Positions 12,482 through 28,223 of a stretch of DNA of 31,754 nucleotides are shown here, one piece after another. Source of the stretch: a virus (lineage: Duplodnaviria; Heunggongvirae; Uroviricota; Caudoviricetes); IMG/VR virus record IMGVR_UViG_3300037313_000650. One strand, 5' to 3'. Below the pieces are notes generated by a model, which worked only from the letters and a program-made list of their open reading frames with translations, had not been told where the DNA came from and did not search any database. Both the position numbers and the translations under genes were made by a program. Position 1 is the stretch's first letter. Every line of letters starts with the position of its first letter.

Positions 12482-12489
12482 TATCTTAT

Positions 12490-13434: not shown

Positions 13435-13835
13435 TGAAAAAGATATTATTAATGCTGGTATTGTTTGTCACCAGCTTTATAGTAAAAGCACAAACAACGT
13501 ATTATGCAGAATATATAGGTAAAACACTTTGGAATAAATATTCTAAAAAATGGGATTATCAAATGCCCAAAGAAACATTCCAGAAGATTACTATATATGG
13601 AGATGTTATTTTAGTGGAAGATAAAGCTAAATCTAGATATACTGTTCATAATGTAATTGATAAAAGTGAAGGGTATTATTACTATACTATATGGAACGCA
13701 GTAGATGAAAGTGGTAGAGAATGTGTAGTAAAACTATCCAAAAGAAGTGATGAGAAATACAGTGAACTATGTGTATTTTATATTAGTTATAGTTCTGGTT
13801 TGTATTATTGGTTTGATGATAAAAAATCTTACTAA
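13434..13835 (+). CDS. putative secreted/periplasmic protein
   Basis: Sec signal MKKILLMLVLFVTSFIVKA-Q, with Gln at +1 as typical of Bacteroidota SPI substrates. Confidence 0.8.
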   Translation: MKKILLMLVLFVTSFIVKAQTTYYAEYIGKTLWNKYSKKWDYQMPKETFQKITIYGDVILVEDKAKSRYTVHNVIDKSEGYYYYTIWNAVDESGRECVVKLSKRSDEKYSELCVFYISYSSGLYYWFDDKKSY

Positions 13836-14002
13836 TGAAAATTGGAAATAAAGTAATTTGCACTCTGCACCCTGATTGGGGTGCTGGAGTGCTTTCTTGT
13901 ATCTCTGAAGGTAAAGGATTCATCTATTGGGGTGAATTTGGAGATATGAGAGACAGAAAGTATGAATTTTGTGATTTATCATTAATAAAAATTGTTATAT
14001 GA
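13835..14002 (+). CDS. small hypothetical protein, SH3-like pattern (55 aa)
   Basis: Read manually: MKIGNKVICTLHPDWGAGVL...; TAATG and ATGA coupled. Confidence 0.7.
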   Translation: MKIGNKVICTLHPDWGAGVLSCISEGKGFIYWGEFGDMRDRKYEFCDLSLIKIVI

Positions 14003-14313
14003 CAATACATGATTGTAAAGAAGGTGTAGTGTACTATTACATACTACAAAGTAGTAGATGGTTAGGAAGGTTTGTTAAAATTGATAGAAGTCAATTATGG
14101 AATGAAGCTAATCTTGATATTAAGGGTGAGCATCTTTATATATATAATACGGGTTCTACAAATCTTTGTGGTACAAATAAAGTATTAGAAGTAAGAGAAG
14201 CTACACCTGAAGAGGTAGAACATTATGAACAATGTGTTGCAGCAAAGAAATATGTAGAATACAAACCTTCTATTAAATCACCTCAAATAATTAATAGTTA
14301 TGACATTTTCTGA
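13999..14313 (+). CDS. YEIF-tail protein 1 (RxAT/CIxAxK family)
   Basis: VREATPEEVEHYEQCVAAKK; ends PQIINSYDIF. Confidence 0.85.
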   Translation: MTIHDCKEGVVYYYILQSSRWLGRFVKIDRSQLWNEANLDIKGEHLYIYNTGSTNLCGTNKVLEVREATPEEVEHYEQCVAAKKYVEYKPSIKSPQIINSYDIF

Positions 14314-14596
14314 TTTAGTAATAGGAGGTGTATATTATGTTCATTGTCCTAAGTATGGGTTTAAATGGATAGTTGAACGTGGTGAAAATCTATTTAACCG
14401 ATATGGTATAGACTTAACAATAAGTAATGACCCTCGTCTTGAAAAAAGTATGGGTTCATTCGTTGAGGATTACGAATGGGAGATTCGTGAGGCTACAAAA
14501 GAAGAAAGAGAATGGTTATGGAAATCTATAAATGCAGATAATATAGTACCAAGAGAAAGTATTAATCCTATAAATAATAATTATGAAATATACTAA
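14300..14596 (+). CDS. YEIF-tail protein 2 (RxAT family)
   Basis: IREATKEEREWLWKSINA; ends PINNNYEIY. Confidence 0.85.
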   Translation: MTFSDLVIGGVYYVHCPKYGFKWIVERGENLFNRYGIDLTISNDPRLEKSMGSFVEDYEWEIREATKEEREWLWKSINADNIVPRESINPINNNYEIY

Positions 14597-14873
14597 TTAT
14601 TCTGATCTAATAGCAGGGCAATACTATGTATTCTATTTTAATAAGAGTGATAATACAGAGTTAAGAGTTATATTTAAATATGGTGGGCGTGAAAATGAGA
14701 AAAGGCACTATATTGATGCTGGTGATAAATACAAATTTGATACATGTTGTAGATGCAGTGGTTATTTTGTTCCTGCTTCTCCTGAAGATATTGAATGGTT
14801 AGATGATTGTATTGCAGCAGGTAAAACTGTTCCCAGACCTACAAAAGTTAATAATAATTATGAAATATTTTAA
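14583..14873 (+). CDS. YEIF-tail protein 3 (RxAT family)
   Basis: VPASPEDIEWLDDCIAAGK; ends PTKVNNNYEIF. Confidence 0.85.
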   Translation: MKYTNYSDLIAGQYYVFYFNKSDNTELRVIFKYGGRENEKRHYIDAGDKYKFDTCCRCSGYFVPASPEDIEWLDDCIAAGKTVPRPTKVNNNYEIF

Positions 14874-14882
14874 TTTTAATAT

Positions 14883-15179
14883 ATGAAATTATCAGAATGT
14901 ATTGAAGGGGTCAGTTATGTATTTGAAAGTGGTAATTGGCCTTATTTAGGTATATATAAAGGTATTAGAGATGATGAAATTATTACAAATTGCTGTTTAA
15001 ATCTTGAAACAGCAGAATTTTTCAAAGAAGAAACACGCTTAATGGATTTGGAATCTCTTGAAAATGTTAGAATACCAACTGACGAAGAGGTTCAATGGTT
15101 TAATGCATGTATTGCAGCTAATAAGGCGGTAAATAAAGCAGATATACCAAAAATCAATAACAACTACGAAATATTTTAA
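14883..15179 (+). CDS. YEIF-tail protein 4 (RxAT family)
   Basis: VRIPTDEEVQWFNACIAANK; ends PKINNNYEIF. Confidence 0.85.
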   Translation: MKLSECIEGVSYVFESGNWPYLGIYKGIRDDEIITNCCLNLETAEFFKEETRLMDLESLENVRIPTDEEVQWFNACIAANKAVNKADIPKINNNYEIF

Positions 15180-15237
15180 ATTTTACAAACTATTATAAAC
15201 TTTTTCTTTATTTTTAAACTTTAAAATTCAAACTAAA

Positions 15238-15702
15238 ATGAGTACAAAGAAAGCAACTGGAAAAGAGACATTAGCATTGACAACAACTACAGAAGTTCCT
15301 GAAGTGATTAAAGCATTGCAAGCACAAATTGATGAATTGAAAGATATTGAAACTTCACAGTGGAAAACAAGTGGTAATCTGGATGGTTTTGGTAGTATTA
15401 AGGAAGAAAAGAAGATTGAGAACTTGATTCGTGCTTATTCTTCTGTTAAAGGTAGAGCTAACGCTTATGAAGATGCAGCAGATGATTTAGGTATTACTAC
15501 CTATCCTCAGTTTAATATCAATGGTGGTACAGTAGAAGATTGGAAGCATGATATTCAATTGAGAATTGCTATTGTCAATCATAAAGAAAAGCTGGATAAA
15601 CTGAAAGATTTTAAAGCTAAAGCAGAACGTTTCCTTTCTGAGGAAGATCAGAAGAAGATGTTATTCAATGAAATGTCTGCATTTCTTGGATTAGGTAAAT
15701 AA
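15238..15702 (+). CDS. coiled-coil hypothetical protein
   Basis: 154 aa, heptad-rich, own terminator. Confidence 0.85.
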   Translation: MSTKKATGKETLALTTTTEVPEVIKALQAQIDELKDIETSQWKTSGNLDGFGSIKEEKKIENLIRAYSSVKGRANAYEDAADDLGITTYPQFNINGGTVEDWKHDIQLRIAIVNHKEKLDKLKDFKAKAERFLSEEDQKKMLFNEMSAFLGLGK

Positions 15703-15720
15703 GTCTCTCTTTTATTGCTT

Positions 15721-15752
15721 AAAGTCCCTGCCTTTTAGGTGGGGACTTTTTT
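15721..15752 (+). terminator. intrinsic terminator
   Basis: aaagtccctgcct...aggtggggacttt plus T-run. Confidence 0.8.
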
Positions 15753-15772
15753 AATTATTTAAATCTGTATAT

Positions 15773-16381
15773 ATGAAACAGATAACTCTTATACTAACTG
15801 TATTAACATTATTAGCCTGTAAAAAGGAAGATGTATCTCCAGAAACAAGTATCATTGAAGTGGAATCTAATTATAAAACAGTTATATATCTAAACTTTGA
15901 AGGAAAGAATATTGTAAATACTGATTGGAATAGTATATACAATATCCAGCAAGTAAATTGTGCTCCTTCCAGTTTTACTAATAATCAGAAACAACAGATA
16001 TATGACAGTTTGATTAAATATCTACAGACTTTCCACATTAGACTTACTGTAAGAAGAGATATTTACGAAAATGCTAATCAAAAAGCAGAAATAGTAGTTA
16101 CCCCTACAAGCTATTGGGCAAAAATAGATGGTATGGGTATCGCAGCAGTAAATTCTCTCACTTATAATATCCCTGCTTTTGTATTTAGCGATGTATCAAA
16201 CAACAATATCCGTAATACAGCCCTTGCAATTGCACATGAAGTAGGACATATTGTAGGACTTAATCATACGAAAACAAATAATTCATTCTATAATAGTTCT
16301 TTCATGGGATATCCCTATCTTAGCTCAAATCCCATATGGACAGAAGAAGACAAACAAATCATTAACCAAAATCTACAATAA
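15773..16381 (+). CDS. lipoprotein zinc metallopeptidase (metzincin/matrixin-like)
   Basis: Lipobox LLA-C then KKED; HEVGHIVGLNH (HExxHxxGxxH); downstream SFMGYP Met-turn. Confidence 0.85.
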   Translation: MKQITLILTVLTLLACKKEDVSPETSIIEVESNYKTVIYLNFEGKNIVNTDWNSIYNIQQVNCAPSSFTNNQKQQIYDSLIKYLQTFHIRLTVRRDIYENANQKAEIVVTPTSYWAKIDGMGIAAVNSLTYNIPAFVFSDVSNNNIRNTALAIAHEVGHIVGLNHTKTNNSFYNSSFMGYPYLSSNPIWTEEDKQIINQNLQ

Positions 16382-16629
16382 TGAATAAGAAATACAACAG
16401 TATTGAAGAAATTATAGGTATAGTCATTAAGTCTGGAAGAGATGATTATAAGGTTATTAAAAATGAAGACAATGAAGACGAATTTGGTCTTATTAATCTT
16501 AAAGTTGGTAATAAATATTTTAATGCATCATATAAATTACTCTATTTTAATAAGAAGTTAGAGCAAGGAATATGGAAAGTAGTAACTGAACCCAAACCCG
16601 AAATCAATAATACCTACGAAATATTCTAA
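16381..16629 (+). CDS. YEIF-tail protein 5 (G/D-x-WK[IV][VI] family)
   Basis: EQGIWKVV; ends PEINNTYEIF. Confidence 0.8.
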   Translation: MNKKYNSIEEIIGIVIKSGRDDYKVIKNEDNEDEFGLINLKVGNKYFNASYKLLYFNKKLEQGIWKVVTEPKPEINNTYEIF

Positions 16630-16811
16630 TGAAAAAAGTAATCAAGATAATGTCCCTACATGGAGAATACTATAGTGTTGAACCAATCATCTTCAGTAGT
16701 GCAAGTGTACACTTTGAAGATATAACTGGTATAAAACGTATAGTTGGTATAGCTGACATAATTGCTATTACATTAACAGAAAAAGATATTAACAATGAAA
16801 AAATTCATTAA
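16629..16811 (+). CDS. hypothetical protein
   Basis: 60 aa, TAATG coupled. Confidence 0.65.
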   Translation: MKKVIKIMSLHGEYYSVEPIIFSSASVHFEDITGIKRIVGIADIIAITLTEKDINNEKIH

Positions 16812-17007
16812 CAAGTTCTTCAAAGACTTTTGTTGGCATTCATGGGATTATTATAATCCATACAACAGAACCTGTACTTTATGTAATGAACATCAAGTAC
16901 AATTTCATAATACTTATGTTTCTAATGGTATGGTAATTCATGTAGACGAATGGGAAACAATGAATAAAACTACTAAAAATGAAAGATTTAAACCTGAATT
17001 GGATTAA
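16795..17007 (+). CDS. small Zn-finger-like protein
   Basis: CWHSW...RTCTLC pattern. Confidence 0.7.
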   Translation: MKKFINKFFKDFCWHSWDYYNPYNRTCTLCNEHQVQFHNTYVSNGMVIHVDEWETMNKTTKNERFKPELD

Positions 17008-17524
17008 ACTCGGTCATACTGGCTGTAATTTTGCATCCATATTTGCTAAAAATCCAGAATGCGTAGGTTGGAAAAGAATAATCAACCCTCTAGGTTTCTC
17101 AATACCAGAGGGTTGTTTCATTTTATCCCTTATTTTTCCAGATAGAGACATTAATTTTGTTCGTAATTGGGCATTAAACAATGGGTTCTTTGAAGAACAG
17201 GTAGCCGAAGGTCTTACTGGACTTAGATTAAAAGTTCCAGAAGGTATCTCTTGGGTACAGTATTTTGGTCCTGATAGTCATGTAAAAACCAGACAAGCAC
17301 CTATGCCTGAATTGTTAATGTGTGTAAAACTACCAGCTAAATACTACTGGAAGGTAGGATTTAAAGGTATATTACACCTTGCTCATGGAGCTATAGATTG
17401 TATTCGTAGTAAGGTGGTAGATAATGTTTGGGATACATCATTTAAACGTACAGCTAAAATATTAGGACATAAACCAACCATTACTGAGGCTGCAAAGACA
17501 ACTTTTAAAAATAAACAATTATGA
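16979..17524 (+). CDS. hypothetical protein
   Basis: 181 aa; GCNFA motif; no firm family. Confidence 0.8.
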   Translation: MKDLNLNWIKLGHTGCNFASIFAKNPECVGWKRIINPLGFSIPEGCFILSLIFPDRDINFVRNWALNNGFFEEQVAEGLTGLRLKVPEGISWVQYFGPDSHVKTRQAPMPELLMCVKLPAKYYWKVGFKGILHLAHGAIDCIRSKVVDNVWDTSFKRTAKILGHKPTITEAAKTTFKNKQL

Positions 17525-17769
17525 AATATTCTAAAGATAGACCTACTGAATTAGTAGGTAAGAAATTTATATATAGTGAAAATGAATATAGGATTATAGA
17601 TTATGATGATAAGAGTAACAAATTTCTTACAAAATATCTAAATGGTATACAAAAAGGTGAAATATTTGAAATGAGTGCTGATCATTATACATTTGGATAT
17701 TTCAATGATGATACTTGGAAAATAATTGAAGAAGAACCTCAAATAAATAATAACTATGATATATTTTGA
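17521..17769 (+). CDS. YEIF-tail protein 6 (WK[IV] family)
   Basis: DDTWKII; ends PQINNNYDIF. Confidence 0.8.
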   Translation: MKYSKDRPTELVGKKFIYSENEYRIIDYDDKSNKFLTKYLNGIQKGEIFEMSADHYTFGYFNDDTWKIIEEEPQINNNYDIF

Positions 17770-18130
17770 TATGATACACGGTAATTATTACTATTACCGC
17801 AATAATAAAAATGAAAATAGTTTAGGCTGGATAATAAAATTTAATGAAATTAAGACTTGTTCTGCTTATTCTGAGGGTCAATCTATTTTTAATTTAGCCT
17901 CTGTTAATCTGGATAATTATGGTAGCTTTTATACAAATGATGAAGGGGGAGATAGTAGATTTCATGATATAAAATCTGATGAATATTATGATCTAAGACC
18001 TGCTACTCCTGATGAAATTAGATATTTGGATGAATGCATAGAGAACGGAAAGAAGGTATTACCTATTCCAATCTTCACTTCTCCAGTTGAAGGTACAATT
18101 AAAATAATTAATGATTATGACATTTTTTGA
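17756..18130 (+). CDS. YEIF-tail protein 7 (RxAT family)
   Basis: LRPATPDEIRYLDECIENGK; ends KIINDYDIF. Confidence 0.85.
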   Translation: MIYFDMIHGNYYYYRNNKNENSLGWIIKFNEIKTCSAYSEGQSIFNLASVNLDNYGSFYTNDEGGDSRFHDIKSDEYYDLRPATPDEIRYLDECIENGKKVLPIPIFTSPVEGTIKIINDYDIF

Positions 18131-18464
18131 CATGGTTTATGGTAATTATTATTACTATAAGAATGATGAAAGTACAATAGCTTACATATTGAAATTCAAT
18201 GAGATACAACCATATAAAAACTACAATTCTTTATATGTTTTAGCTGCTGCTAGTATCAAAGGTTATGATACTTTTATGGATAAGGAAGAAGGTGGTAGTG
18301 ATAGATTTTTGGATATTGGACCGAAGAAAAACTATACATTAAGACCAGCCACTATAAAAGAAATAATGTGGCTTGATGAGTGTATAAAAGAACAAAAATG
18401 GATAAATTATAATCCATCCAAATTACCTGAAAATCAGATAAATAATAATTATGAAATCTACTAA
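18117..18464 (+). CDS. YEIF-tail protein 8 (RxAT family; close paralog of protein 7)
   Basis: MTFFDMVYGNYYYY vs MIYFDMIHGNYYYY; both have EGGxxRFxDI; ends QINNNYEIY. Confidence 0.85.
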   Translation: MTFFDMVYGNYYYYKNDESTIAYILKFNEIQPYKNYNSLYVLAAASIKGYDTFMDKEEGGSDRFLDIGPKKNYTLRPATIKEIMWLDECIKEQKWINYNPSKLPENQINNNYEIY

Positions 18465-18678
18465 ATACAAAGTTGGAGATTATGTAAGAGCTTTAACTAC
18501 TGGTTTTTATGATGATATTGTAGTACCAAATAAGATGTATAAGGTTGCAAGACTAGAGAATGATGGTAGCGGAGTGCATATAGAAATAGATAACTTTTTA
18601 ACTTTATATATGTATAATAGTGAAGTAGAATTAGCTAACAGTCCACAAGAAATAATTGATTCGTATGAAATATACTAA
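18451..18678 (+). CDS. YEIF-tail protein 9 (SH3/KOW-like)
   Basis: KYKVGDYVR...EVEL pattern; ends PQEIIDSYEIY. Confidence 0.8.
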   Translation: MKSTKYKVGDYVRALTTGFYDDIVVPNKMYKVARLENDGSGVHIEIDNFLTLYMYNSEVELANSPQEIIDSYEIY

Positions 18679-18895
18679 AGAAAATATAATCAGTTTAGTA
18701 GTTCAAGCTGGAGAAGGTAAAAATACTTCAAAGTATACAATAGTTGCTCCAATAGATAACACAGACTTTGCACTATGTGATTGTGATGGTGATACATACG
18801 GGAATTATCATTTTTCAGAATTTAAAAAATATATTGAAGAAGGTACGTGGAAAATTGTTGAGCCTGTAATCATTAATTCATACGAAATTTATTAA
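18665..18895 (+). CDS. YEIF-tail protein 10 (WK[IV] family)
   Basis: EEGTWKIV; ends PVIINSYEIY; start at overlapping ATG 18665. Confidence 0.8.
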   Translation: MKYTKENIISLVVQAGEGKNTSKYTIVAPIDNTDFALCDCDGDTYGNYHFSEFKKYIEEGTWKIVEPVIINSYEIY

Positions 18896-18897
18896 TC

Positions 18898-19134
18898 ATG
18901 AGTGAAGAACGCTACATTGGTTACGGACTTCTCCTTGATTTACCTTCAGGAAGAGTAGGATTAGAATTAACACTTAACCAGCTATCAGAACTGTATAAAG
19001 AAGCTGTAGAAAATAATGGTAAGGTGAAGGTTCTAGTCCTACCTGTTAAACCTGAAAATGTAACAGAGTGGAGAACTCATTCAGTTAAGATAGGAGAAAG
19101 CAAATATAAACAGAAACTTATAAAAGAGCATTAA
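18898..19134 (+). CDS. hypothetical protein
   Basis: 78-aa ORF. Confidence 0.75.
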   Translation: MSEERYIGYGLLLDLPSGRVGLELTLNQLSELYKEAVENNGKVKVLVLPVKPENVTEWRTHSVKIGESKYKQKLIKEH

Positions 19135-19135
19135 C

Positions 19136-19540
19136 ATGAAATCAAAGATTGAAATTATTGATGAGACTGTAGCTTATTATAGTGAAGACCCTAATAGAAG
19201 GGCAGTAGTAATGACTACATGTAAGTACCGCACTCCAGATGGTAGAATGTGTGCATTTGGTAGGTGTATGACTGAAGAAAGTTTAGAACTATATGGTGAT
19301 TTTCAAGGTGGTGTTATGAGACTTTTACTTAAATGTTATGACCGTCCACTTTCAGATGTGATTCTCCTAACAACAGTTATTAATACACCATTAAAAGAAG
19401 AATATCAAGGTCATGAGCTTACTTTTTGGACAAATATACAACGCTTACATGATGATTTTGATTACTGGAATTCAGATGGATTAACTGAAGAAGGAAAGGA
19501 ATACGTAGAAGTTATGAAAAATAAATATAAAGGGTTATAA
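19136..19540 (+). CDS. conserved phage protein (CKYRTPDGRMCAFG motif)
   Basis: CxYRxxdGxxCAxG motif recalled from many phage hypotheticals. Confidence 0.85.
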   Translation: MKSKIEIIDETVAYYSEDPNRRAVVMTTCKYRTPDGRMCAFGRCMTEESLELYGDFQGGVMRLLLKCYDRPLSDVILLTTVINTPLKEEYQGHELTFWTNIQRLHDDFDYWNSDGLTEEGKEYVEVMKNKYKGL

Positions 19541-19567
19541 AGAAACATTAACAAAAATAAATTCAAA

Positions 19568-21703
19568 ATGAAACAATTACAGCAAAAGATTCAAGACCAA
19601 CTAAATAAAATGACTTCAACTGGTAAGCTCTTTAGAAGTAGTATATCAGGTTCTGAAGTATGGAACATCTATATACAATCTTTTGAAAATGATCCGATCT
19701 TTCGTGACCCCAACAGTTCTACACATAATTGTAACCTGTGTAATAATTTCATCAGACGATATGGTAATATTGTAGCTGTATCTCCTGAAAATGAAATTAT
19801 GACTATTTGGGATGTAGAAATTGAAGGTGAGTTTGCACCAGTAGTTAAAGCTATCTCAACTAAATTGAAATCAGCTAAGATTCAGGATGTATTTTTTGAG
19901 ACTTATGCTGAACTTAATAGTTTGAACTATGAGAAGTGTAAAAAAACAAATACTGTATTCAGATTGGGTATAGATAAAAATCATAAACAGTATACCAAAG
20001 AAGAAGCTGATAAATTTGGTGTAGTAGAAGAGGGAGAAATCAGAACATTTCATCATCTTCATGTGGATATACCTGCTGCTTTTGTAGATATGAGTGGTGC
20101 TTCAGTAGAAGCTCTTATGGGTAGCTACAGAGATGCTAAGAATGTATTTCAAAGAGCAATGGAAGAGATAAGCATAGATACGTTACAGCTTGTTAGAGAT
20201 TTAATAAATCAAGGTAGTTTACTGGATGGTACAACACATCTATACAAAGTAGAGCAATTCATTCCATTTAAACAACAATATAGTGAGATTGGTAAAAAAG
20301 ATAGAGATAATTGGTGTTGGGCAACTTCTTATAAATTACCTATTGCTAAGTTTAAGAATGAATTGATTGGCGTATTATGTTCTGAACTTTCTGAAGGTAA
20401 GGAACTTAACGAAGCTTGTCAGGCATGGAATAAGCGTGTTGATCCTGCTAATTACATGAAAGCTACTGCACCCATCACCAAAAAGCAAATAGCAGAAGCT
20501 GAAAAATTCGTAGAAGAGAATGGATATGTAGAATCATTTGATAGAAGATTTGCTACAATTGATGATATTAAGGTGAGTGAAATACTTCATGCTAATGTTG
20601 GAGATGGTAAAATTAAGAAAGTCTCTATTTTTGATAACGTAAAGTCTACCTCTACCAGACATAAGAGAAGTGAATTTGATAAAGTGGAAGAAGTGAGTAT
20701 AGAAAAGTTCATGAAAGATATTCTTCCTTCATGTACTTCTATAGAGGCTTTCCTCACTTCTCAACATGAGGGTAATATGGTATCTCTCACTACAGCTAAC
20801 GACAAGAACAGCAAACCTATCTTTAAATGGGATAACAACTATTCTTGGACCTATAATGGTAACTTAGCTGGTAAATCACAGATTAAGCAAGCTGTAAAGG
20901 ATGCTGGTGGTAATGTGGAAGGTGTATTGAATTTTCGTTTAGCTTGGAATGAATCTGGTGAAGATAATTCTGATTTGGACTTGTGGGCTATCGAACCTAA
21001 TGGTGTTAGAATTGGTTTCAGCACACAATACAGAAAAGGTAGACCGGGATATGATCGTAGTTCTATGTCTGGTCAATTAGATGTAGATATTATCAGCCCT
21101 TCTGGTAAATTAGCTGTTGAGAATATTACATGGACTGACTTTAACAAGATGAAAGATGGAGTATATATAGTATATGTAAATCCATATCATGCATCAAATT
21201 CAAAAGGTTTTAAGTTAGAGATTGAATTTGATGGTGAAACATATGTTTATAGTTATGATCGCCCTGTACCTGTAGTATCAAATGTACATATAGCTGAAGT
21301 CACTCTAAAAGATAGGAAGTTTAGTATCAGACACTTACTTCCTGTAGTTGAAGGTACTGGTGCTCAGAAAGAAATCTATGGCTTGGAATCTAACCAATTC
21401 CATAAGGTGAATCTAGTATGTTTGTCTCCTAATCATTGGGAAGGTAACAATGTAGGAAATAAGCATTATTTCTTCATGCTGGAAGGTGCTAAATGTCCTA
21501 TTTCAATTCGTTCTTTCCACAATGAGAACCTGATTCCTGAACTTGCAGCACATAGAAAAGTGTTAGAAGTTCTAGGAGCTACTCATACTATTAAACCTAA
21601 TGGTAAGCAATTATCAGGTTTAGGTTTTAACAGTACTGTAAAGGATGAATTAGTAGTTAGATTAAAAGGTAGTCATTCAAGAGTAATAAAAATCAAATTC
21701 TAA
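19568..21703 (+). CDS. large conserved phage protein with C-terminal YfaP/DUF2135-like domain
   Basis: 711 aa; N-terminal HNCNLCNNFIRRYG (CxxC); C-terminal DLDLWAIEPNG and GQLDVD...AVENITW match the DUF2135-type pattern. Confidence 0.8.
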   Translation: MKQLQQKIQDQLNKMTSTGKLFRSSISGSEVWNIYIQSFENDPIFRDPNSSTHNCNLCNNFIRRYGNIVAVSPENEIMTIWDVEIEGEFAPVVKAISTKLKSAKIQDVFFETYAELNSLNYEKCKKTNTVFRLGIDKNHKQYTKEEADKFGVVEEGEIRTFHHLHVDIPAAFVDMSGASVEALMGSYRDAKNVFQRAMEEISIDTLQLVRDLINQGSLLDGTTHLYKVEQFIPFKQQYSEIGKKDRDNWCWATSYKLPIAKFKNELIGVLCSELSEGKELNEACQAWNKRVDPANYMKATAPITKKQIAEAEKFVEENGYVESFDRRFATIDDIKVSEILHANVGDGKIKKVSIFDNVKSTSTRHKRSEFDKVEEVSIEKFMKDILPSCTSIEAFLTSQHEGNMVSLTTANDKNSKPIFKWDNNYSWTYNGNLAGKSQIKQAVKDAGGNVEGVLNFRLAWNESGEDNSDLDLWAIEPNGVRIGFSTQYRKGRPGYDRSSMSGQLDVDIISPSGKLAVENITWTDFNKMKDGVYIVYVNPYHASNSKGFKLEIEFDGETYVYSYDRPVPVVSNVHIAEVTLKDRKFSIRHLLPVVEGTGAQKEIYGLESNQFHKVNLVCLSPNHWEGNNVGNKHYFFMLEGAKCPISIRSFHNENLIPELAAHRKVLEVLGATHTIKPNGKQLSGLGFNSTVKDELVVRLKGSHSRVIKIKF

Positions 21704-21918
21704 TGGGAAAAATTGTTTCAATTACAGAAAAAACACCAGTATCAGCAACATTACCTGATGGTAACTATGTAGGTATATGGGGTGGTAACATCATTGAACT
21801 AAAATATAATAATAAAACTTACGAATTAGAAACAGAAGTAGGTGTTAGGGGTATAGGTTATCATGTTGTAGTGATTGTTAAAGATGGTGAAGCCACATTT
21901 CAAGAACTAAAAAATTAA
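21703..21918 (+). CDS. hypothetical protein
   Basis: 71 aa, TAATG coupled. Confidence 0.75.
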   Translation: MGKIVSITEKTPVSATLPDGNYVGIWGGNIIELKYNNKTYELETEVGVRGIGYHVVVIVKDGEATFQELKN

Positions 21919-21943
21919 ATTCTAATTTTAAAATCAAAACAAA

Positions 21944-22330
21944 ATGGACAATTTCAAAAAAGCCAGCCAATTAAAGCTAAGATTTGTAACAAACAAAGGT
22001 GTATTATCAGTTGAACAATTGTGGGACTTAACCCCAACTCAATTAGCTACATTAGTTCGTTCTATTAAGGAAGAATTAAAAAGTGCTAATGTGGATGATG
22101 AACTATCCTTCCTGAGCGATAGTATCCCAACAAAAGGAGATATTGAAAATCAACTCCGTTTTGAGATTGCAAAAGAAGTATACCTAGCTAAGAAAGCTGA
22201 AGCTGAAGAATTGAGAGATGCTAAAGCTAAGAAAGAACACAATCAGAAGATTCTTGCTCTGATTCAAGAGAAGAAGGAAGGTGAACTGAAGAATAAAAGT
22301 ATTGAAGAATTAGAAGCACTTCTTAAATAA
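21944..22330 (+). CDS. conserved phage coiled-coil protein (KLRF..KG.LSVEQLWDL)
   Basis: 128 aa; family recalled as a neighbour of the 711-aa protein type. Confidence 0.85.
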   Translation: MDNFKKASQLKLRFVTNKGVLSVEQLWDLTPTQLATLVRSIKEELKSANVDDELSFLSDSIPTKGDIENQLRFEIAKEVYLAKKAEAEELRDAKAKKEHNQKILALIQEKKEGELKNKSIEELEALLK

Positions 22331-22339
22331 TTGATTATC

Positions 22340-22370
22340 AGGGTGGTGTAGAAATACATCACCCTTTTTT
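22340..22370 (+). terminator. intrinsic terminator
   Basis: agggtggtgta-GAAA-tacatcaccct-ttttt. Confidence 0.9.
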
Positions 22371-22382
22371 AAACTTTTTACA

Positions 22383-22661
22383 ATGGAAACAGCAATAGAA
22401 ATAGCAATTAAATATGCTGAAGATAATATAAAAGCTTGTAAAGATGGTACTATGATGAGTTTTGGTGAAGCTATTTGGGGTGAAAATGCTTGGATAGAAA
22501 TAAGAAGATACCTAACAGGTTTATTACCTACAGAAAGATTTAAACTTGAAAAAGCCTTCGAAGCTGGAAGTCACTGGAATGAAAAGTATAATAAATATAC
22601 TGATGATTCTATAAAAGTTCCTGATTTTAAAAAATATTACGAAGAAACTTATGCAAAATAA
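22383..22661 (+). CDS. hypothetical protein
   Basis: 92-aa ORF. Confidence 0.8.
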   Translation: METAIEIAIKYAEDNIKACKDGTMMSFGEAIWGENAWIEIRRYLTGLLPTERFKLEKAFEAGSHWNEKYNKYTDDSIKVPDFKKYYEETYAK

Positions 22662-23106
22662 ATCTATACTCCTTATAGGTCAGGCTTTACCTAGAGTGAA
22701 ACAACACGTACCATATGATAGTACTATGTTATATGAATGGTTGGAAGAATGCGGTGTATCTATGGAACAGGCACAAGATATATTTGATTTTGATGCTGTT
22801 TATGATAAATTCCCCGGCTATAATGTAAAAGGTGGTCACGCTACACCAACCTATGAACAGATGTTAGAATATTATAATAGATCATTGAGGGAGAAGATCA
22901 CTAAATATAACAAAATAATCATATTAGGAAATGTTGCAAAAATGTTTTTACTTTCTACCAATTCTCTATTGGGAAAGCACATACTGTATTTAATTCACCC
23001 TTCCAGACTAAATTTCAATCTGTATCAGAGGAACAAAGAAACAATTATTTCTAATCTGAAACAGTTTATTCATGAAGACATTTACCATCCACATCACCTT
23101 CAGTAA
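22651..23106 (+). CDS. uracil-DNA glycosylase-like superfamily protein
   Basis: ILLIGQAL (motif A-like), IIILGNVA, LIHPS (motif B) as in family 4/5-type UDG folds. Confidence 0.7.
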   Translation: MQNKSILLIGQALPRVKQHVPYDSTMLYEWLEECGVSMEQAQDIFDFDAVYDKFPGYNVKGGHATPTYEQMLEYYNRSLREKITKYNKIIILGNVAKMFLLSTNSLLGKHILYLIHPSRLNFNLYQRNKETIISNLKQFIHEDIYHPHHLQ

Positions 23107-23242
23107 GGGGAATCAGTTAATCTTCTACAATGTACAAGCTTCTACAGAAGAAGAAGCTATTCAATTAGTAGTGAAACTAATTAAAGGAAAACAAATCTAC
23201 AAAATTTCTGCTGAAGAGGATAAAAAAGTATTGGAAGTATAA
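23072..23242 (+). CDS. small hypothetical protein (56 aa)
   Basis: Read manually: MKTFTIHITF...VQASTEEEAIQLV. Confidence 0.65.
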   Translation: MKTFTIHITFSKGNQLIFYNVQASTEEEAIQLVVKLIKGKQIYKISAEEDKKVLEV

Positions 23243-23288
23243 AAACTATTTATTAACATTGCAAAACTAAAACCGCTATTTAGAAACT

Positions 23289-23465
23289 ATGAGTAAGTAT
23301 TCCGAACCACAAGTTGTAAGAGAACTAGTACAAAAACAAGACATTGAGATTAAAGGTAAGATGATTATTATTGATAACAACAAAGGAGATATTGGTATCA
23401 ACTCTAAAGGAAAGATTGACTTCCTGACAAGATACTGCGGTTACTTTATTACTATAGCTAAGTAA
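23289..23465 (+). CDS. small hypothetical protein (58 aa)
   Basis: Read manually: MSKYSEPQVVREL...GKIDFLTRYCGYFITIAK. Confidence 0.7.
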   Translation: MSKYSEPQVVRELVQKQDIEIKGKMIIIDNNKGDIGINSKGKIDFLTRYCGYFITIAK

Positions 23466-23511
23466 CCTCCATTGGTGCTTACGGGGATTTGTATTTACTT
23501 ATCCCCTTTTA

Positions 23512-23543
23512 TTTGGCAATTTCAAGAAAATATCCTATATTTA
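23512..23543 (+). promoter_or_regulatory. Bacteroidota-type promoter for tmRNA
   Basis: TTTG-N20-TATATTTA, ending 11 nt before the tmRNA 5' end. Confidence 0.7.
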
Positions 23544-23554
23544 AATCTTAATAT

Positions 23555-24052
23555 GGGGGTGTAAGGAATTGATTCACAGTAATAGGTAAATACACAGGTA
23601 AGAGTATCTAGTCCTCGCAATGCTAGGTAATAATAAATGCAGAAACTGAGCTTTCTGATATGACTTTCGATAGCTTAATGGCTTTCGTAGGTGCTGAAAA
23701 AGTAGCTGCTTAGTAGCCCTACTATTCAGTGGAGATGTAGCTAAGGCTTTTCCTCCCTTGGGGTTTGATTTAACCTTGCAACAGAATAAATCAGTAGAGG
23801 GACTCCCTTAACAGTTAAGGCTGACCTTAAGCACTCTACTTAAAATACTATTGTATATAGGGGGTGAAGCAATAGAAACCAGAGGGGAAACTGTAAAGTC
23901 ACCGGGATTGTTGTAAGTATATGTCCAAATGATAACAGAACTTTCAAAACTACGGTGCAGGTATTAAATATTAGTTTAATATCAGTACTAAACCTGTAAG
24001 TGCGTATTTATTGTATTCTGGAGAAGACAGGGCTTCGATGCCCTCACCTCCA
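23555..24052 (+). ncRNA. ssrA: tmRNA
   Basis: Acceptor stem GGGGGTG/CACCTCC-A with G3:U Ala determinant; GGAATTGA after the 5' stem; helix 2 (taaatac/gtattta, acaggt/acctgt); ACTAAACCTGTA; T-arm agggc-ttcgat-gccct; resume context AATAAAT-GCA; tag ORF 23639-23713 AETELSDMTFDSLMAFVGAEKVAA*. Confidence 0.95.
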
Positions 24053-24080
24053 CAATTTTTTCCTACACATCCACAAATAT

Positions 24081-24111
24081 TTTACTATATTTAGTATAGT
24101 TTGTATATTTG
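24081..24111 (+). promoter_or_regulatory. Bacteroidota-type promoter, probably leaderless endonuclease transcript
   Basis: TTTA-N19-TATATTTG ending 4 nt before the ATG at 24116. Confidence 0.55.
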
Positions 24112-24115
24112 TGGT

Positions 24116-24667
24116 ATGAAGAAATATAAATATAAGAGAAAGTTGGTAGAAATAGAATGTGATTATTGTGGGAACATTCATACCAAACCTGAGAGTGAAT
24201 ATAATAGGAATAAAATAAAAGGGAGAAAAAATTACTGTAGCAGAAGTTGCTGCGGTAAGGTAACAATTAAACAAAATATTCCTAAAGAGAGTATAGTATG
24301 GGAACATCTTAAAGGTATTAATAGAAGAGATAAATATACAGGATTTAGAGAGCATATAAGAAGAATTCATAATAGACATAAGAAAATTGAATTGACCTTA
24401 GATGATTTACTGGAGCAATGGAATAAGCAAAATGGTAAATGTATTTATAGTGGTGTAACTTTAACAAATCCTATTAGTACAAGAAATTATTATAATAATC
24501 CTATATGTACAGCTTCTTTAGACAGAGTTGATAGTTCAAAAGGTTATACTAAAGATAATATTCAATTCATAAGTTATTCTATGAATTATATGAAAAATAA
24601 CATGACTCATGAACAAACTATTGACTTGTGTAAAATAATTTGTAACTTTTGGGATAAAAAAGATTAA
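24116..24667 (+). CDS. freestanding HNH-superfamily (beta-beta-alpha-metal) homing endonuclease
   Basis: N-terminal CDYC...YCSRSC Zn finger; C-terminal QNGKCIYSG...SLDRVDSSKGYTKDNIQFISYSMNYMKN, the DRxD HNH variant. Confidence 0.8.
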   Translation: MKKYKYKRKLVEIECDYCGNIHTKPESEYNRNKIKGRKNYCSRSCCGKVTIKQNIPKESIVWEHLKGINRRDKYTGFREHIRRIHNRHKKIELTLDDLLEQWNKQNGKCIYSGVTLTNPISTRNYYNNPICTASLDRVDSSKGYTKDNIQFISYSMNYMKNNMTHEQTIDLCKIICNFWDKKD

Positions 24668-24675
24668 ATGATATA

Positions 24676-24830
24676 AAAATAGGAAGTGTGCCGTAGGTAT
24701 TATTAACGTTTATCGGGAAGCCTACAAGTGCTTAATATCCTTCCTATTTTAAATTATTAGGTATAGATGGTGTATGGAGTTTGATTAACCCACTATGGAA
24801 TGATTAGTAAACAGCCTCACACTATACCTA
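24676..24830. other. two adjacent long imperfect hairpins in an ORF-free gap
   Basis: aaaataggaag/cttcctatttt with inner gtaggt/gcctac; taggtatag/ctataccta with inner gtgt/acac and gttt/aaac. Confidence 0.55.
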
Positions 24831-24902
24831 AAGCTTATCAGATTTTGCCATTTGATAGCTAACCAGCCGCTTTAGTGCTGAAAATTCACATGAGAGAAAG
24901 TT

Positions 24903-24934
24903 AACCCCTTGATAGGAATATCAGGGGGTTTTTT
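24903..24934 (+). terminator. intrinsic terminator
   Basis: aaccccttgata-GGAA-tatcagggggtt plus T-run. Confidence 0.85.
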
Positions 24935-24972
24935 AATTTTGTTAAACATTTTCTAATTATAAATCAAACAAA

Positions 24973-25326
24973 ATGGCAAGAAAGAACAAAACTATCAAAT
25001 TCTACTCAGATGAAGAAAAAGATATCATCAAAAAAGCAGTAGAAAAGAACAACTATCCAAGTGCTCTTGCTGGAGCTAGGGATTTAGCCCCTAAACTAAA
25101 CAGGCCCGAAGGGGGATTAGCTTTAGTAGTAGCAAGAATGATGAAGAAAATAGGTCATCCTACAGCAAAAAATAAATCCAGAGCAATGAGTAAAAAAGCT
25201 ATTGAACCGGATAGTAGAAAATTGAATTCTAAAAAGGCTAACTTACCTAAAAAGAATCAATTATCTTTCCCACTGAATAGTGTAGATTTCGAAATTAAAA
25301 ACGGTAGAATTTGGATTAGTTTTTAG
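24973..25326 (+). CDS. basic hypothetical protein, possible HTH DNA-binding
   Basis: Lys/Arg-rich; YSDEEKDIIKK...ARDLAPKLNR Myb/HTH-like pattern; own terminator. Confidence 0.8.
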   Translation: MARKNKTIKFYSDEEKDIIKKAVEKNNYPSALAGARDLAPKLNRPEGGLALVVARMMKKIGHPTAKNKSRAMSKKAIEPDSRKLNSKKANLPKKNQLSFPLNSVDFEIKNGRIWISF

Positions 25327-25336
25327 TCCATTTTAG

Positions 25337-25365
25337 AGAAGTCCCTCAATTGGGACTTCTTTTTT
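25337..25365 (+). terminator. intrinsic terminator
   Basis: agaagtccc-tcaatt-gggacttct-ttttt. Confidence 0.85.
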
Positions 25366-25390
25366 AATTCCATAACTAAATAAAAAAAAC

Positions 25391-25804
25391 ATGAAAACAA
25401 TTGAAACTATCCTTAAGGATTACAAGAGTGAAACAATAGATGGTAGGGATTTAAGTAGACTTGTACAATTTTTAACTGAAGAACAAGCTTCTAGTATTGG
25501 TATTAACTTTAAGGATGAATATAAAGGTAAGCATGAACCTATACCATTTACAAAGGAAAATGTATTGAAACAATTAGAAAGTGATGTAGAATTTGGATTT
25601 GAAAAAGCTCTGAATCAAAGAGGTATATCTGCTGGATTGATGTATGATGTAGTAAAAATGTGGAATTGGATATTAGAAGAAGGGTTAGAAGACTTTGATG
25701 ATTATGCTTATTATGGATTACCCTTATTTAAAGCCACTGCTGTAAAATACAACTTTAACAATCCTATAGGAGAAGATTCAGGAAGTGAATCTGAATATAG
25801 CTGA
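25391..25804 (+). CDS. conserved phage protein (FGFEKALNQRGISA motif)
   Basis: 137 aa; motif recalled from uncharacterised phage proteins. Confidence 0.85.
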   Translation: MKTIETILKDYKSETIDGRDLSRLVQFLTEEQASSIGINFKDEYKGKHEPIPFTKENVLKQLESDVEFGFEKALNQRGISAGLMYDVVKMWNWILEEGLEDFDDYAYYGLPLFKATAVKYNFNNPIGEDSGSESEYS

Positions 25805-25854
25805 ATATAACAAGAATTATTTTCTTATATTTGTCATACTTAAAAACAATTCTT

Positions 25855-26058
25855 ATGCTTAGATGGACTATTATTTTTCTTGTACTTGCAATCATTTCTG
25901 CAATTTTTGCTTGGGGCAATATAGCTTCTACCTCTGTAGAAGATATTGCTAAAATAACATTCTACGCCTCTTTTATTTTATTTGTTCTATCTCTTTTTGC
26001 TGGATGTAGGAGATTTTCTGATGAAACCGATAAACTTGATGAAGATTGGGGGTTTTAA
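25855..26058 (+). CDS. DUF1328 / UPF0391 family small membrane protein
   Basis: MLRWTIIFLVLAIISAIF.WG.IA.....IAKITF...FILFVLSL matches the family; TATATTTG promoter element at 25826-25833. Confidence 0.85.
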   Translation: MLRWTIIFLVLAIISAIFAWGNIASTSVEDIAKITFYASFILFVLSLFAGCRRFSDETDKLDEDWGF

Positions 26059-26076
26059 CCACTTAATATTTAAACT

Positions 26077-26133
26077 ATGAGAAAATATTGGATTCCCGGC
26101 GATCCTTCAGAGGACGAAGGAAGTGAAGACTAA
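26077..26133 (+). CDS. candidate micropeptide MRKYWIPGDPSEDEGSED
   Basis: 18 codons after a tttaaactATG start region typical of this window. Confidence 0.4.
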   Translation: MRKYWIPGDPSEDEGSED

Positions 26134-26160
26134 CTATTTACCAAACAAAAACTAACAATT

Positions 26161-26340
26161 ATGTACATTATCTTTCAAGACAAACGAACACTTGAGTGTT
26201 TTTCTGTATCTCAAAATGCATTAGACTTTCCTGAGTTCTTAGAATTTGAACAAAGGGGATTAGTAAAGAGAGTATTTGTAGGTAAAAAACGAGATTGTGA
26301 TAAGTATCTTGAAAATGAAGTTGAGGTAGAAATGATTTAA
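26161..26340 (+). CDS. small hypothetical protein (59 aa)
   Basis: Read manually: MYIIFQDKRTLECF...; terminator follows at ~26350-26374. Confidence 0.7.
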   Translation: MYIIFQDKRTLECFSVSQNALDFPEFLEFEQRGLVKRVFVGKKRDCDKYLENEVEVEMI

Positions 26341-26385
26341 TTAATATACAAAGGGGGCTAACAACCCCCTTTTAAATTTATTATT

Positions 26386-26775
26386 ATGGTATCAAAAATA
26401 ACAGCAGGTATTAAAGTTTCAGTTGAAACTTTCTACCAACTAGATTATTCAAATCCAATGCAGTCTGAATTTATGTTTGCTTACCGTATTACTATTGAAA
26501 ATCTAACTGGACATGATATGAAATTATTAAGCAGACATTGGTTTATCTTTGATTCTGAAATTGGTAATAAAAGAGAAGTAAAAGGTGAAGGTGTAGTTGG
26601 TATGACTCCTGTTATTGAATCTGGAAAGGATTTTCAGTATGTATCAGGAGTAAATTTACATTCTGAAATGGGTACAATGAATGGGTGTTACACTTTTCAA
26701 AATCAATCTACGAAGGATTTAGTAGAGGTTAAAGTACCAAAGTTCGAACTTATTGTTCCATTTAAACATAATTAA
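26386..26775 (+). CDS. apaG: ApaG (DUF525) protein
   Basis: ITAGIKVSV...FAYRITIEN...LLSRHWFI...VKGEGVVG..PVI..G..FQYVSG..L.SE.GTM.G.Y: full ApaG signature. Confidence 0.93.
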   Translation: MVSKITAGIKVSVETFYQLDYSNPMQSEFMFAYRITIENLTGHDMKLLSRHWFIFDSEIGNKREVKGEGVVGMTPVIESGKDFQYVSGVNLHSEMGTMNGCYTFQNQSTKDLVEVKVPKFELIVPFKHN

Positions 26776-26777
26776 TT

Positions 26778-27068
26778 ATGAAAGAATTAATATTACAAAA
26801 TATAAAAACTTCAGGTAAGAATACTGCTGTATGGTGTGAGAACCTTGAAGAGTGGGAGCAAGTACTAAAAATAATAGGAAATCCACAGGAACTTACTAAA
26901 GCTAATTATAATAGTTATAGAAATGAATATCCATCCATAAATGTTAATGATGGACGTTATGGTCATAGAGGATGGTATATAAATAATTCTTATGATGTAT
27001 ATCTAGCAAGTGAATTTATCAAGGCAAATACAGGACCACAAATTATTAATTCATATGAAATTTATTGA
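26778..27068 (+). CDS. YEIF-tail protein 11
   Basis: TAVWCENLEEWEQVL body, unrelated to the RxAT family; ends PQIINSYEIY. Confidence 0.8.
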   Translation: MKELILQNIKTSGKNTAVWCENLEEWEQVLKIIGNPQELTKANYNSYRNEYPSINVNDGRYGHRGWYINNSYDVYLASEFIKANTGPQIINSYEIY

Positions 27069-27070
27069 TT

Positions 27071-27310
27071 ATGCTTCCAAAATACGGATATATTAAAGAT
27101 ATGACACCAGAGCAAACTAAACAACTAATAGAGCTACTGGAAAAAGAAGGATATAAAAAGAATTCAGATAATTATGATTGGGGAGAAGGTAAGTTAGCTT
27201 GGTATAATGATAAATTTTATAGTCATATTCTAGACGATTCTAAACAACCATTATACAAATTTGAAGATGTAATCCAAAGTGAAATTATTAATAATTACGA
27301 AATATATTAA
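27071..27310 (+). CDS. YEIF-tail protein 12
   Basis: LIELLEKEGY body; ends EIINNYEIY. Confidence 0.8.
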   Translation: MLPKYGYIKDMTPEQTKQLIELLEKEGYKKNSDNYDWGEGKLAWYNDKFYSHILDDSKQPLYKFEDVIQSEIINNYEIY

Positions 27311-27314: not shown

Positions 27315-28223
27315 ATGATTATCGGAAATAGAAAACATGCAAAACCTTTTTTGAAATGGGCAGGGGGTAAGACACAGTTGATTCCAGCGATTAAGTCTAC
27401 AATACCAAATGAGCTACACAATATCCCATTTACTTATGTAGAACCGTTTATAGGAAGTGGTGCAGTATTTTTTTGGTTTCTAAGACACTTTCCAAACATA
27501 CAGAAGGCAGTTATTAATGATGTAAACAAAGATTTAATTGATACTTACCTGACTATAAAACTTTATCCCAATGATTTAGTGAAAGAATTAAAAGAATTGG
27601 AAAAGGAATACCAAAGCCTTGATTCACAAGAAAAGCAAAAGGAGTTATTTTTAAATAAAAGAGCACTTTTTAACTCGAGAAAAAACAGCATAGTTATACA
27701 AAGCTCTTTAATGATTTTTCTAAATAGAACTTGCTTCAATGGGCTTTATAGGGTAAATAGTAAAAACCAATTTAATGTTCCATTTGGCAGGTATACGAAT
27801 CCTACTATTTGTGATACGGAAAATATTTATAATGTTAGTGTAGCTTTGGAGAACGTGACAATTCTCAACCAAGACTATTCTTCTACATTACCAGAAATTG
27901 AAGGTGATACTTTCTTTTATTTCGACCCTCCTTATAAACCTCTTAGTCAAACAGCATCATTTAACTCATATGCAAAGGATATTTTTGGTGATAGTGAGCA
28001 GCAACGCCTAAAAGTTTTCTGTGATGAGCTTGATAGAAGAGGAATCAACTGGCTTCTTAGTAACTCAGACCCTAAGAATACAGACCCTAGCAATCACTTC
28101 TTTGATGACTTATATAACCATTATTACATTAATAGGGTACGGGCTAAAAGAACAATAAACTCGGATGCATCTAAAAGAGGAGATATATTTGAATTATTAA
28201 TCCACAATTATAAAATATATTAA
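27315..28223 (+). CDS. dam: Dam-family (D12 class) DNA N6-adenine methyltransferase
   Basis: KPFLKWAGGK, YVEPFIGSGAV, NDVN, NRTCFNGLYRVN..FNVPFG.Y, catalytic YFDPPY; start moved to 27315. Confidence 0.92.
   Translation: MIIGNRKHAKPFLKWAGGKTQLIPAIKSTIPNELHNIPFTYVEPFIGSGAVFFWFLRHFPNIQKAVINDVNKDLIDTYLTIKLYPNDLVKELKELEKEYQSLDSQEKQKELFLNKRALFNSRKNSIVIQSSLMIFLNRTCFNGLYRVNSKNQFNVPFGRYTNPTICDTENIYNVSVALENVTILNQDYSSTLPEIEGDTFFYFDPPYKPLSQTASFNSYAKDIFGDSEQQRLKVFCDELDRRGINWLLSNSDPKNTDPSNHFFDDLYNHYYINRVRAKRTINSDASKRGDIFELLIHNYKIY

Follow-up and report, generated by a model that had tools for sequence, protein, structure and literature searches.

A C-terminal Y-E-I-[YF] peptide shared by diverse small proteins of large AT-rich phages, a candidate protein-addressing tag

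Background

We analysed a stretch of 31,754 nucleotides (hereafter the window) from the IMG/VR virus record IMGVR_UViG_3300037313_000650 (Caudoviricetes), in which twelve small proteins end in the same short peptide. The window corresponds to bases 1113-32866 (minus strand) of the complete 164,315-bp virus record, which has direct terminal repeats. This C-terminal tail is a real tag, selected as a peptide, portable across families of protein bodies, strictly terminal and co-inherited with an untagged gene, named A1 here. The phenomenon is far larger than the window and comprises 183 small proteins with a Y-E-I-[YF] core in at least 12 divergent phage lineages. It is very probable that the tag serves recognition at the protein level, and the best reading, to which we give a probability of about 0.45, is a docking tag read by a phage-encoded or otherwise common hub.

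The closest named relatives of this phage are the Cellulophaga phages phi4:1 and phi17:2, together with the 462-kb record LR756500.1, and the hosts of these large AT-rich phages are probably Bacteroidota. The tail was first noticed in an earlier reading of the window (the original prediction), which proposed an octapeptide addressing system and knew of no described motif that matches it. We likewise found no published description of the tag in the literature searched, including for 'YEIY' or 'YEIF' together with phage.

Results

The tail in the window

Twelve plus-strand open reading frames (ORFs) of 75 to 124 residues terminate in [IV][IN][ND][NSTD]Y[ED]I[FY] immediately before the stop codon. 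The twelve ORFs, stops and octapeptides listed in the original prediction were all recovered exactly from the ORF list and a six-frame scan (Table 1), in which the strict pattern gave 12 matches in the window, 12 of 12 directly before a stop. Searching the whole 164,315-bp genome revealed no further copy outside these ORF ends; 6e-6 strict tails are expected from the amino-acid composition of the genome, and 0 of 300 shuffles yielded one. Chance or a composition artefact as the source of the tail is ruled out by the genome scan, the shuffles and the Bacteroidota controls described below. A proline lies 1-4 residues upstream of the octapeptide in 10 of the 12 tails, and the codons vary synonymously, both as had been predicted: Tyr is encoded by TAT (8) or TAC (4), Ile at position -2 by ATA (7), ATT (4) or ATC (1), and Ser by AGT, TCG or TCA, and the stop is TAA (8) or TGA (4).

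The original prediction missed the 14-nt overlaps between genes, a thirteenth, out-of-frame copy of the tail and the paralogy of six of the bodies. In 6 of the 12 tails the ATG of the next gene lies inside TAT-GAx, which produces the 14-nt overlap. The thirteenth copy, KINNYEIF*, is in the +1 frame relative to a 181-aa ORF (16979-17524, PHROG 34888) and is preceded by a run of five A at 17507-17511. Because the phi4:1 homologue of this ORF (56% identical) ends at the same point without a tail (..TTFKR), we read the copy as a frameshifted tail or as the relic tail of a lost upstream gene; it may also be due to a homopolymer sequencing error.

Core and flanks of the tag

Residue frequencies were determined on 142 non-redundant tails. 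Position -4 is Y in 82%, E in 8%, P in 7% and F in 3%, position -3 is E in 87%, position -2 is I in 89%, and the last residue is Y (82%) or F (18%). The flank upstream of this core is Asn-rich, with Pro frequent near -10. In this phage (G0), I(-8) and N(-6) are each found in 11 of 12 tails, and both residues are also typical of genome G002, while G005 has E(-7) and P(-6) instead, the latter in 24 of 27 tails; the other genomes have no fixed flank. The flanks are thus common to unrelated bodies inside one genome and different between genomes. Judged from these frequencies, the constant core is Y-E-I-[YF]-COOH, and the eight-residue form is specific to a few lineages. The octapeptide of the original prediction therefore holds in this phage, but as a general tag it has to be reduced to the four-residue core.

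At L338:4234-6331, at least four ORFs flanking A1 carry the variant ..I-N-[ND]-F-[ES]-[IV]-W (e.g. ..NNFEIW), sometimes with one additional residue. The 197-kb contig L300 encodes an A1 homologue, and about 14 small paralogues in a row (9400-16400) end there in [FIV]-x-[KI]-[IL]-[LMI]; this shared ending probably represents the final strand of a single family and not a second tag. One ORF adjoining A1 on this contig ends in LYEIW.

Spread among other phages

Other arrays were uncovered by DNA-pattern scans of IMG/VR, by a profile search with the main body family of the window (family A, see below) and by contig look-ups. Complete genomes contain from 2 to about 36 tails, namely about 27 in G005 (175 kb), about 36 in G006 (180.5 kb), about 21 in G008 (120 kb) and 2 in G007 (87 kb). 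We counted 21 tails in G001 and 19, 9 and 17 in L108, L110 and L111, respectively, and further arrays were present in L174/L134, L101, L210, L031, L135, L033, L164 and L006. Four consecutive non-overlapping ORFs of L080/L036 end in IINDYNIF, INNNYEIF, INNDYSIF and VVNDYEIF. The tail pattern was not found in phi4:1 or LR756500.1, each scanned over its full length.

Relatives that keep the bodies and lose the tail, or a motif equally frequent in AT-rich genomes, had been named beforehand as grounds for rejecting the tag. All 13 family-A homologues that other contigs yielded keep the ending ..[YE]E[IL]Y, and the DNA pattern TAYGARATHTWYTRA is no commoner than its reversed control in 81 Bacteroidota genomes, so that both sequence-based objections fail. 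Among 215 control loci with a chance DNA pattern, 190 had no tail-ending ORF. Only 3 of 30 sampled Bacteroidota matches of the pattern end an ORF of at least 50 aa, and none is recurrent. Mimicry of a conserved host protein end was accordingly rejected, no recurrent ORF ending in YEI[YF] being present among these matches.

Bodies and genomic setting of the tagged proteins

After removal of the tail, the bodies of the window form 6 blastp clusters (6+2+1+1+1+1), the largest of which consists of the paralogues of family A. The twelve proteins had been described as unrelated; several body families are indeed present, but the term is overstated, because six of the twelve are paralogues. When the last 12 residues of all 183 tail proteins were removed, 84 blastp clusters remained, 57 of them singletons. 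Some of these clusters may be very distant relatives, and a [ST]-x-E-E-[FI] helix, noted by eye, recurs ahead of many tails. Identity within the window is 69% for the tail vs 27% for the body, and by this measure no other part approaches the tail in conservation, even if the bodies are distantly related.

The 12 proteins of the window are all acidic, with a pI of 4.4-6.3, and hydrophilic; inspection by eye revealed no signal peptide or membrane-like segment in them. Searches of Pfam and PHROGs gave no family for 10 of the 12 and only two PHROG matches, at E ~0.01; nine larger tail proteins of other genomes gave nothing in Pfam except one KOW match below cut-off. An AlphaFold2 model of family A, based on a 26-sequence alignment, contains a four-strand sheet and a helix (residues 67-78), followed by the linker and the tail (90-97), the latter with a pLDDT below 50. 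No PDB fold match was found for this model. A tail that is predicted to be disordered after the end of the fold would be an appended linear motif and not a part of the fold.

The tagged genes share one arm of the complete genome with UDG, Dam methylase, RecA, ribonucleotide reductase, helicases and DNA polymerase; this arm is on the strand opposite to the terminase, portal and capsid genes.

Selection on the peptide

In 57 of the 142 tails the next gene starts at an ATG within TAT-GAA, and the downstream proteins begin with MKYT, MKST or MKFI, the same bases encoding Y-E-I-Y-stop and M-K-Y-T. For this reason a DNA or RNA element was considered a serious rival to a peptide. The 85 tails without an overlapping start nevertheless retain the peptide, among them the complete set of four in L080 and the window's four tails with TAC. 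In non-overlapping tails Ile is encoded by ATA (39) or ATT (33), and Tyr(-4) by TAC in 42%, a codon use that looks like avoidance of a stray ATG. Replacements in the tail are conservative at the protein level (I/L/V/M, Y/F/W, E/D), and Ser is encoded by both AGT and TCN. In the 57 overlaps, synonymous changes of the tail (ATA/ATC/ATT; TAC/TAT) appear as Y/S/F and T/I replacements in the downstream N-terminus (MK[Y/S/F][T/I]); the downstream frame absorbs the variation, and the tail frame is therefore the constrained one. Untagged genes of the same arrays are coupled just as tightly. As far as can be read from these sequences, selection acts on the peptide, and purifying selection on the tag is strong. 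The codon variation, the conservative replacements, the non-overlapping tails and the 84 body clusters together bear out the portable module under peptide-level selection that had been proposed. The out-of-frame relic of the window suggests a secondary use of the tail sequence, either to couple genes or to provide microhomology through which arrays grow.

A1, an untagged gene inherited with the tag

A1 lies in the middle of the main array of the window and has no tag. Every lineage examined has a homologue (23-50% identical) within or next to its tail arrays. When seven tail-bearing genomes were compared all against all by phmmer, with blastp in agreement, A1 was the only family present in 7 of 7, with one copy each; all other families, terminase and portal included, occur in at most five. 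Neither phi4:1 nor LR756500.1, the relatives without tails, has A1, and a tblastn search of cultured phages gave no match. The family has 1591 representatives at 50% identity, 127 of them at E <= 1e-30. Strong A1 matches were also sampled regardless of tails, and of the 7 contigs with DNA, 6 show tail-like ORF ends in the vicinity, the seventh being a contig of 2.8 kb.

In the A1 model, a disordered Lys-rich N-terminus is followed by helices at 20-33 and 60-83 and by a C-terminal helix of 52 residues (pLDDT 76). Residues 69-151 match profile positions 58-139 of 140 of PHROG 2574 (E 1.5e-8), a family without known function. A fold search with the model gave generic helical matches only (Foldseek E >= 0.26; VIA Z <= 7.5), the ESM Atlas yielded no informative match, and the A1 profile had no significant match among PDB sequences. 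The predicted complex of A1 with the last 44 residues of family A scored 0.00, which gives no answer and speaks neither for nor against binding.

Other candidate receptors were rejected. ApaG is not a common partner, because it is absent from G001 and G002, and the MoxR/VWA and Hsp90-like genes of the phage are not common to tail-bearing genomes either. The E-I-[YF]-COOH end of 87% of the tails fits the PDZ class III ligand pattern [DE]-x-Phi-COOH; such a pattern match counts for little by itself. Five complete tail-bearing phage genomes were searched for PDZ_2 and PDZ_6 domains, and neither was found. Host PDZ proteins are mostly periplasmic.

Features of the window

The tagged genes, A1 and the ORFs with related ends are listed in Table 1.

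Table 1. Tagged genes and related features of the window
Feature	Position	Strand	Remarks
Tail protein, family A, 104 aa, IINSYDIF	13999..14313	+	Next ATG inside TAT-GAC (14300)
Tail protein, family A, 98 aa, INNNYEIY	14300..14596	+	14-nt overlap with next gene; AlphaFold2 fold to ~residue 78, tail predicted disordered
Tail protein, family A, 96 aa, VNNNYEIF	14583..14873	+	
Tail protein, family A, 98 aa, INNNYEIF	14883..15179	+	Tyr = TAC, no overlapping start
A1, untagged 154-aa helical protein, candidate receptor/hub	15238..15702	+	Partial PHROG 2574 match; family common to all tail-bearing genomes compared
Tail protein, family B, 82 aa, INNTYEIF	16381..16629	+	Tyr = TAC
Out-of-frame remnant tail KINNYEIF*	17508..17534	+	ATG of next gene (17521) within remnant
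Tail protein, 82 aa, WK-type C-terminal region, INNNYDIF	17521..17769	+	14-nt overlap downstream
Tail protein, family A, 124 aa, IINDYDIF	17756..18130	+	
Tail protein, family A, 117 aa, INNNYEIY	18111..18464	+	
Tail protein, 75 aa, KxGDYV-type N-terminus, IIDSYEIY	18451..18678	+	
Tail protein, family B, 76 aa from ATG (79 from TTG 18656), IINSYEIY	18665..18895	+	Tyr = TAC
Tail protein, 96 aa, IINSYEIY	26778..27068	+	Tailed homologues in L110 and L111
Tail protein, 79 aa from ATG (81 from TTG 27065), IINNYEIY	27071..27310	+	Tyr = TAC
Dam-type methyltransferase, ends ..LLIHNYKIY	27315..28223	+	Tail-like, Lys for Glu; membership of tagged set uncertain

The tail array also contains, at 15773-16381, the gene of a reprolysin-like Zn metalloprotease (HExxGH) whose N-terminus is of the lipoprotein type (..LLAC). 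Directly upstream of the last two tail genes lies ApaG (26386-26775; DUF525, E 1.7e-29), which is 53-67% identical to proteins of Chitinophagaceae and other Bacteroidota among the genome-collection matches found, and the Dam-type methyltransferase is directly downstream of the same two genes.

Tail-like ends were also seen on larger proteins. A 325-aa PD-(D/E)XK (Cas4/RecB-like) nuclease with a C-terminal Cys cluster ends in ..PFEIF (L271:14081-15055 of G005; G006 121592-122566). Leaving aside the near-tail of the Dam methylase, this nuclease is the only enzyme of a known family on which such an end was found. Though few, the ends of this nuclease and of the Dam methylase (NYKIY) hint that the destination is associated with DNA. 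A protein of 247 aa with weak similarity to UDG, present in five of the seven genomes (e.g. G000 149962-150705 and G001 12976-13707), ends in ..YENPPF or ..LDSEVPF, endings that recall the C-terminal tips of SSB.

Discussion

The preferred reading is that Y-E-I-[YF]-COOH, extended in this phage to [IV][IN][ND]xY[ED]I[FY], would be a short linear motif for recognition, carried by varied small acidic proteins of the early region at the free end of a disordered C-terminal linker that often contains Pro. Its strict terminal position, disorder, portability and concerted flanks suggest a single receptor. One common receptor would read the terminal aromatic residue with its carboxylate, the Ile, the near-invariant Glu and the Tyr, and diverse, fast-evolving bodies would in this way be tethered or handed to one machine. 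A1, with its 52-residue C-terminal helix, could be this phage-encoded hub; by co-inheritance only, it is the best candidate receptor, and this assignment is tentative. It is likewise doubtful, though conceivable, that the whole forms a tag-and-receptor addressing system, in which a four-residue C-terminal code, with its lineage-specific flanks and F-E-I-W variants, would mark up to about 36 small acidic proteins per genome for A1 to read and to concentrate on one target, assemble into one complex or load into one compartment.

Several points weigh against this reading. The portable peptide module at a free C-terminus on a flexible linker, under peptide-level selection, is what stands of the proposed addressing system, but the binding of the tail by any partner is something that we infer from the sequences. 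One hub would have to serve up to 36 competing tagged proteins, and a processing or sorting machine therefore fits better than a static hub. The A1 family is broader than the tails: L302 (a short contig) has A1 without a tail, and L267 has a distant A1-like gene without tails. A1 may thus be a conserved core gene of the hypervariable early region and nothing more. Finally, the A1 tree lacks a clean co-variation with the terminal residue Y, F or W.

Among the other explanations, a capsid-loading signal is unlikely, although it survives best. The tag would dock the small proteins inside the procapsid or on its scaffold for packaging and ejection into the next host, in the manner of the T4 capsid targeting sequence (CTS) or of encapsulin cargo. 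Sorting is the usual reason for dozens of proteins to share a terminal tag, and the methyltransferase and the PD-(D/E)XK nuclease with tail-like ends are of enzyme types that some phages package, as in the Dar proteins of P1. However, the tagged genes are on the replication and early arm, with terminase, portal and capsid encoded on the opposite strand. The acidity of all 12 proteins would be unfavourable beside packed DNA, and the C-terminal tag has no recognisable protease site.

Next comes a degron or protease tether, which we regard as rather improbable; the tag would hand over early proteins, or the targets that their bodies bind, to an AAA+ protease of host or phage, either for timed removal or as an SspB-type adaptor. 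The tail shares with typical C-degrons and adaptor tails a strictly terminal position, a free carboxylate, a flexible linker and many substrates. The phage also carries its own tmRNA and thereby engages the tagging and proteolysis system. This tmRNA (23555-24055, plus strand) was recognised by Rfam RF00023 with 54.7 bits, vs a gathering score of 47 (E 1.5e-20), and was not called at this position by ARAGORN. Read from GCA at 23639, its tag has 24 codons and ends in ..EKVAA, followed by TAG TAG, and the tmRNA tags of four Bacteroidota genomes are shorter, with 9 residues (GEDNYALAA, GNEEFALAA, GNTQYAMAA). The tail as the product of the phage tmRNA was rejected, since the tag of the latter ends in ..KVAA. 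Nor does it resemble ssrA-type ends in general (..[YF]-A-[LM]-A-A-COOH; ..A[LM]AA in the host phylum), since it ends in E-I-[YF] instead. Moreover, known C-degrons are far more variable than the near-invariant Y-E-I-Y with its conserved Glu, and no protease gene is common to the tail-bearing genomes.

We consider it still less probable that the tail addresses a host replication hub, as a divergent beta-clamp motif (x-Phi-acidic-Phi-F) or an SSB-tail mimic that recruits proteins to forks or blocks host replication. DnaN was not found in this phage, and its DNA polymerase (G000 160441-162507, outside the window) ends in ..EQLSLF, as the polymerases of G002 (62198-64084) and G007 (32049-33914) end in ..KQLELF and ..QQLKLL; these phages therefore probably borrow the host sliding clamp. 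Y-E-I-F would place a hydrophobic, an acidic, a hydrophobic and an aromatic residue at the L-S/D-L-F positions, and a nuclease and a methyltransferase are among the proteins with tail-like ends. Positions 2, 4 and 5 of the clamp motif, which are Y, I and Y/F here, are compatible, except for the 15% of tails with E or P at position 2. The conservation is nevertheless opposite to that of clamp motifs: the Gln position (-5) is variable (among others N 36, D 17, S 16, T 14 and E 13 of 142), the normally loosely constrained position 3 is the near-invariant Glu (87%), and 82% of the tails have Tyr as their last residue. Canonical QLxLF occurs alongside YEIY within the same genomes, and no intermediates connect these two separate classes. 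Compared with the SSB tip (an acidic run and [IL]-P-F-COOH), the tails lack the Pro at -2, the Pro-Phe and the acidic run, and their flank is Asn-rich, not Asp-rich. Finally, no recurrent host protein ending in YEI[YF] was seen among the 30 matches sampled from the 81 Bacteroidota genomes.

A nucleic-acid element of which the peptide is a by-product, with ..AATAATTATGAAATATAYTAA as a cassette for translational coupling or restart (ATG 11 nt before the stop) or as a recombination joint for cassette shuffling, is very improbable: the start codons inside 57 of the 142 tails and the out-of-frame remnant before gene 17521, as if a joint had moved with the downstream gene, favour it, but the 85 non-overlapping tails, the free variation at synonymous sites including both types of Ser codon, the conservative replacements, the varying downstream frame, the equally tight coupling of untagged genes and the chance level of the DNA pattern in Bacteroidota genomes all oppose it.

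If the docking tag is indeed an addressing code, one regular expression would pick out a functional class among ORFan proteins that are otherwise unannotatable. Tagged proteins account for 5-10% of the genes of these large AT-rich phages, a widespread group, and the A1 family alone forms about 1600 clusters at 50% identity. The tag also offers an experimental handle, with the peptide as bait and reporters with or without the tag, on the long-standing question of the role and coordination of small early phage gene arrays. It would be a protein-sorting code of bacterial viruses that had not been recognised before and is visible from sequence alone, would bring a phage example to the short list of known terminal sorting peptides, such as the T4 CTS and the encapsulin cargo peptides, and could be used in phage engineering as a portable tag to load or tether proteins.

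Comparison with known systems

Several known systems address many proteins through short or constant C-terminal elements. Encapsulin cargo-loading peptides (~10 residues) and the peroxisomal PTS1 (-SKL-COOH, a tripeptide with upstream context) are C-terminal, follow a flexible linker and are carried by unrelated cargo. The logic of the YEIY tag is the same, but its sequence differs from theirs, and receptor and compartment are only at the level of candidates here. The beta-clamp motif QL[SD]LF, the SSB tip (..D-[IL]-P-F) and the ClpX-binding peptide of SspB are short, often C-terminal, and bring many proteins to one hub on disordered linkers, and in such hub-docking tails the terminal aromatic residue and the carboxylate matter. 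Their architecture is like that of the YEIY tag, although sequence and pattern of conservation differ. Poxvirus ankyrin/PRANC (F-box-like) proteins are variable binder families within one viral genome that share a constant C-terminal docking element. They resemble the tagged proteins in combining a variable body with a constant tail, but their element is folded, has about 50 residues and binds the host SCF, whereas the YEIY tag is a linear motif of 4-8 residues.

The T4 CTS is a short conserved terminal peptide that addresses hypervariable small phage proteins of a plastic locus to one destination (PMC3012670). In T4 as here, a short terminal peptide is the sole common element of diverse small phage proteins. 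The CTS, however, is N-terminal and cleaved by the prohead protease, and the internal proteins are mostly basic, while the YEIY tag is C-terminal, has no evident cleavage site and is carried by acidic proteins whose genes are on the early and replication arm. Matching none of these systems in sequence, scale and linkage, the tag belongs, by analogy, with the terminal addressing and docking peptides in kind.

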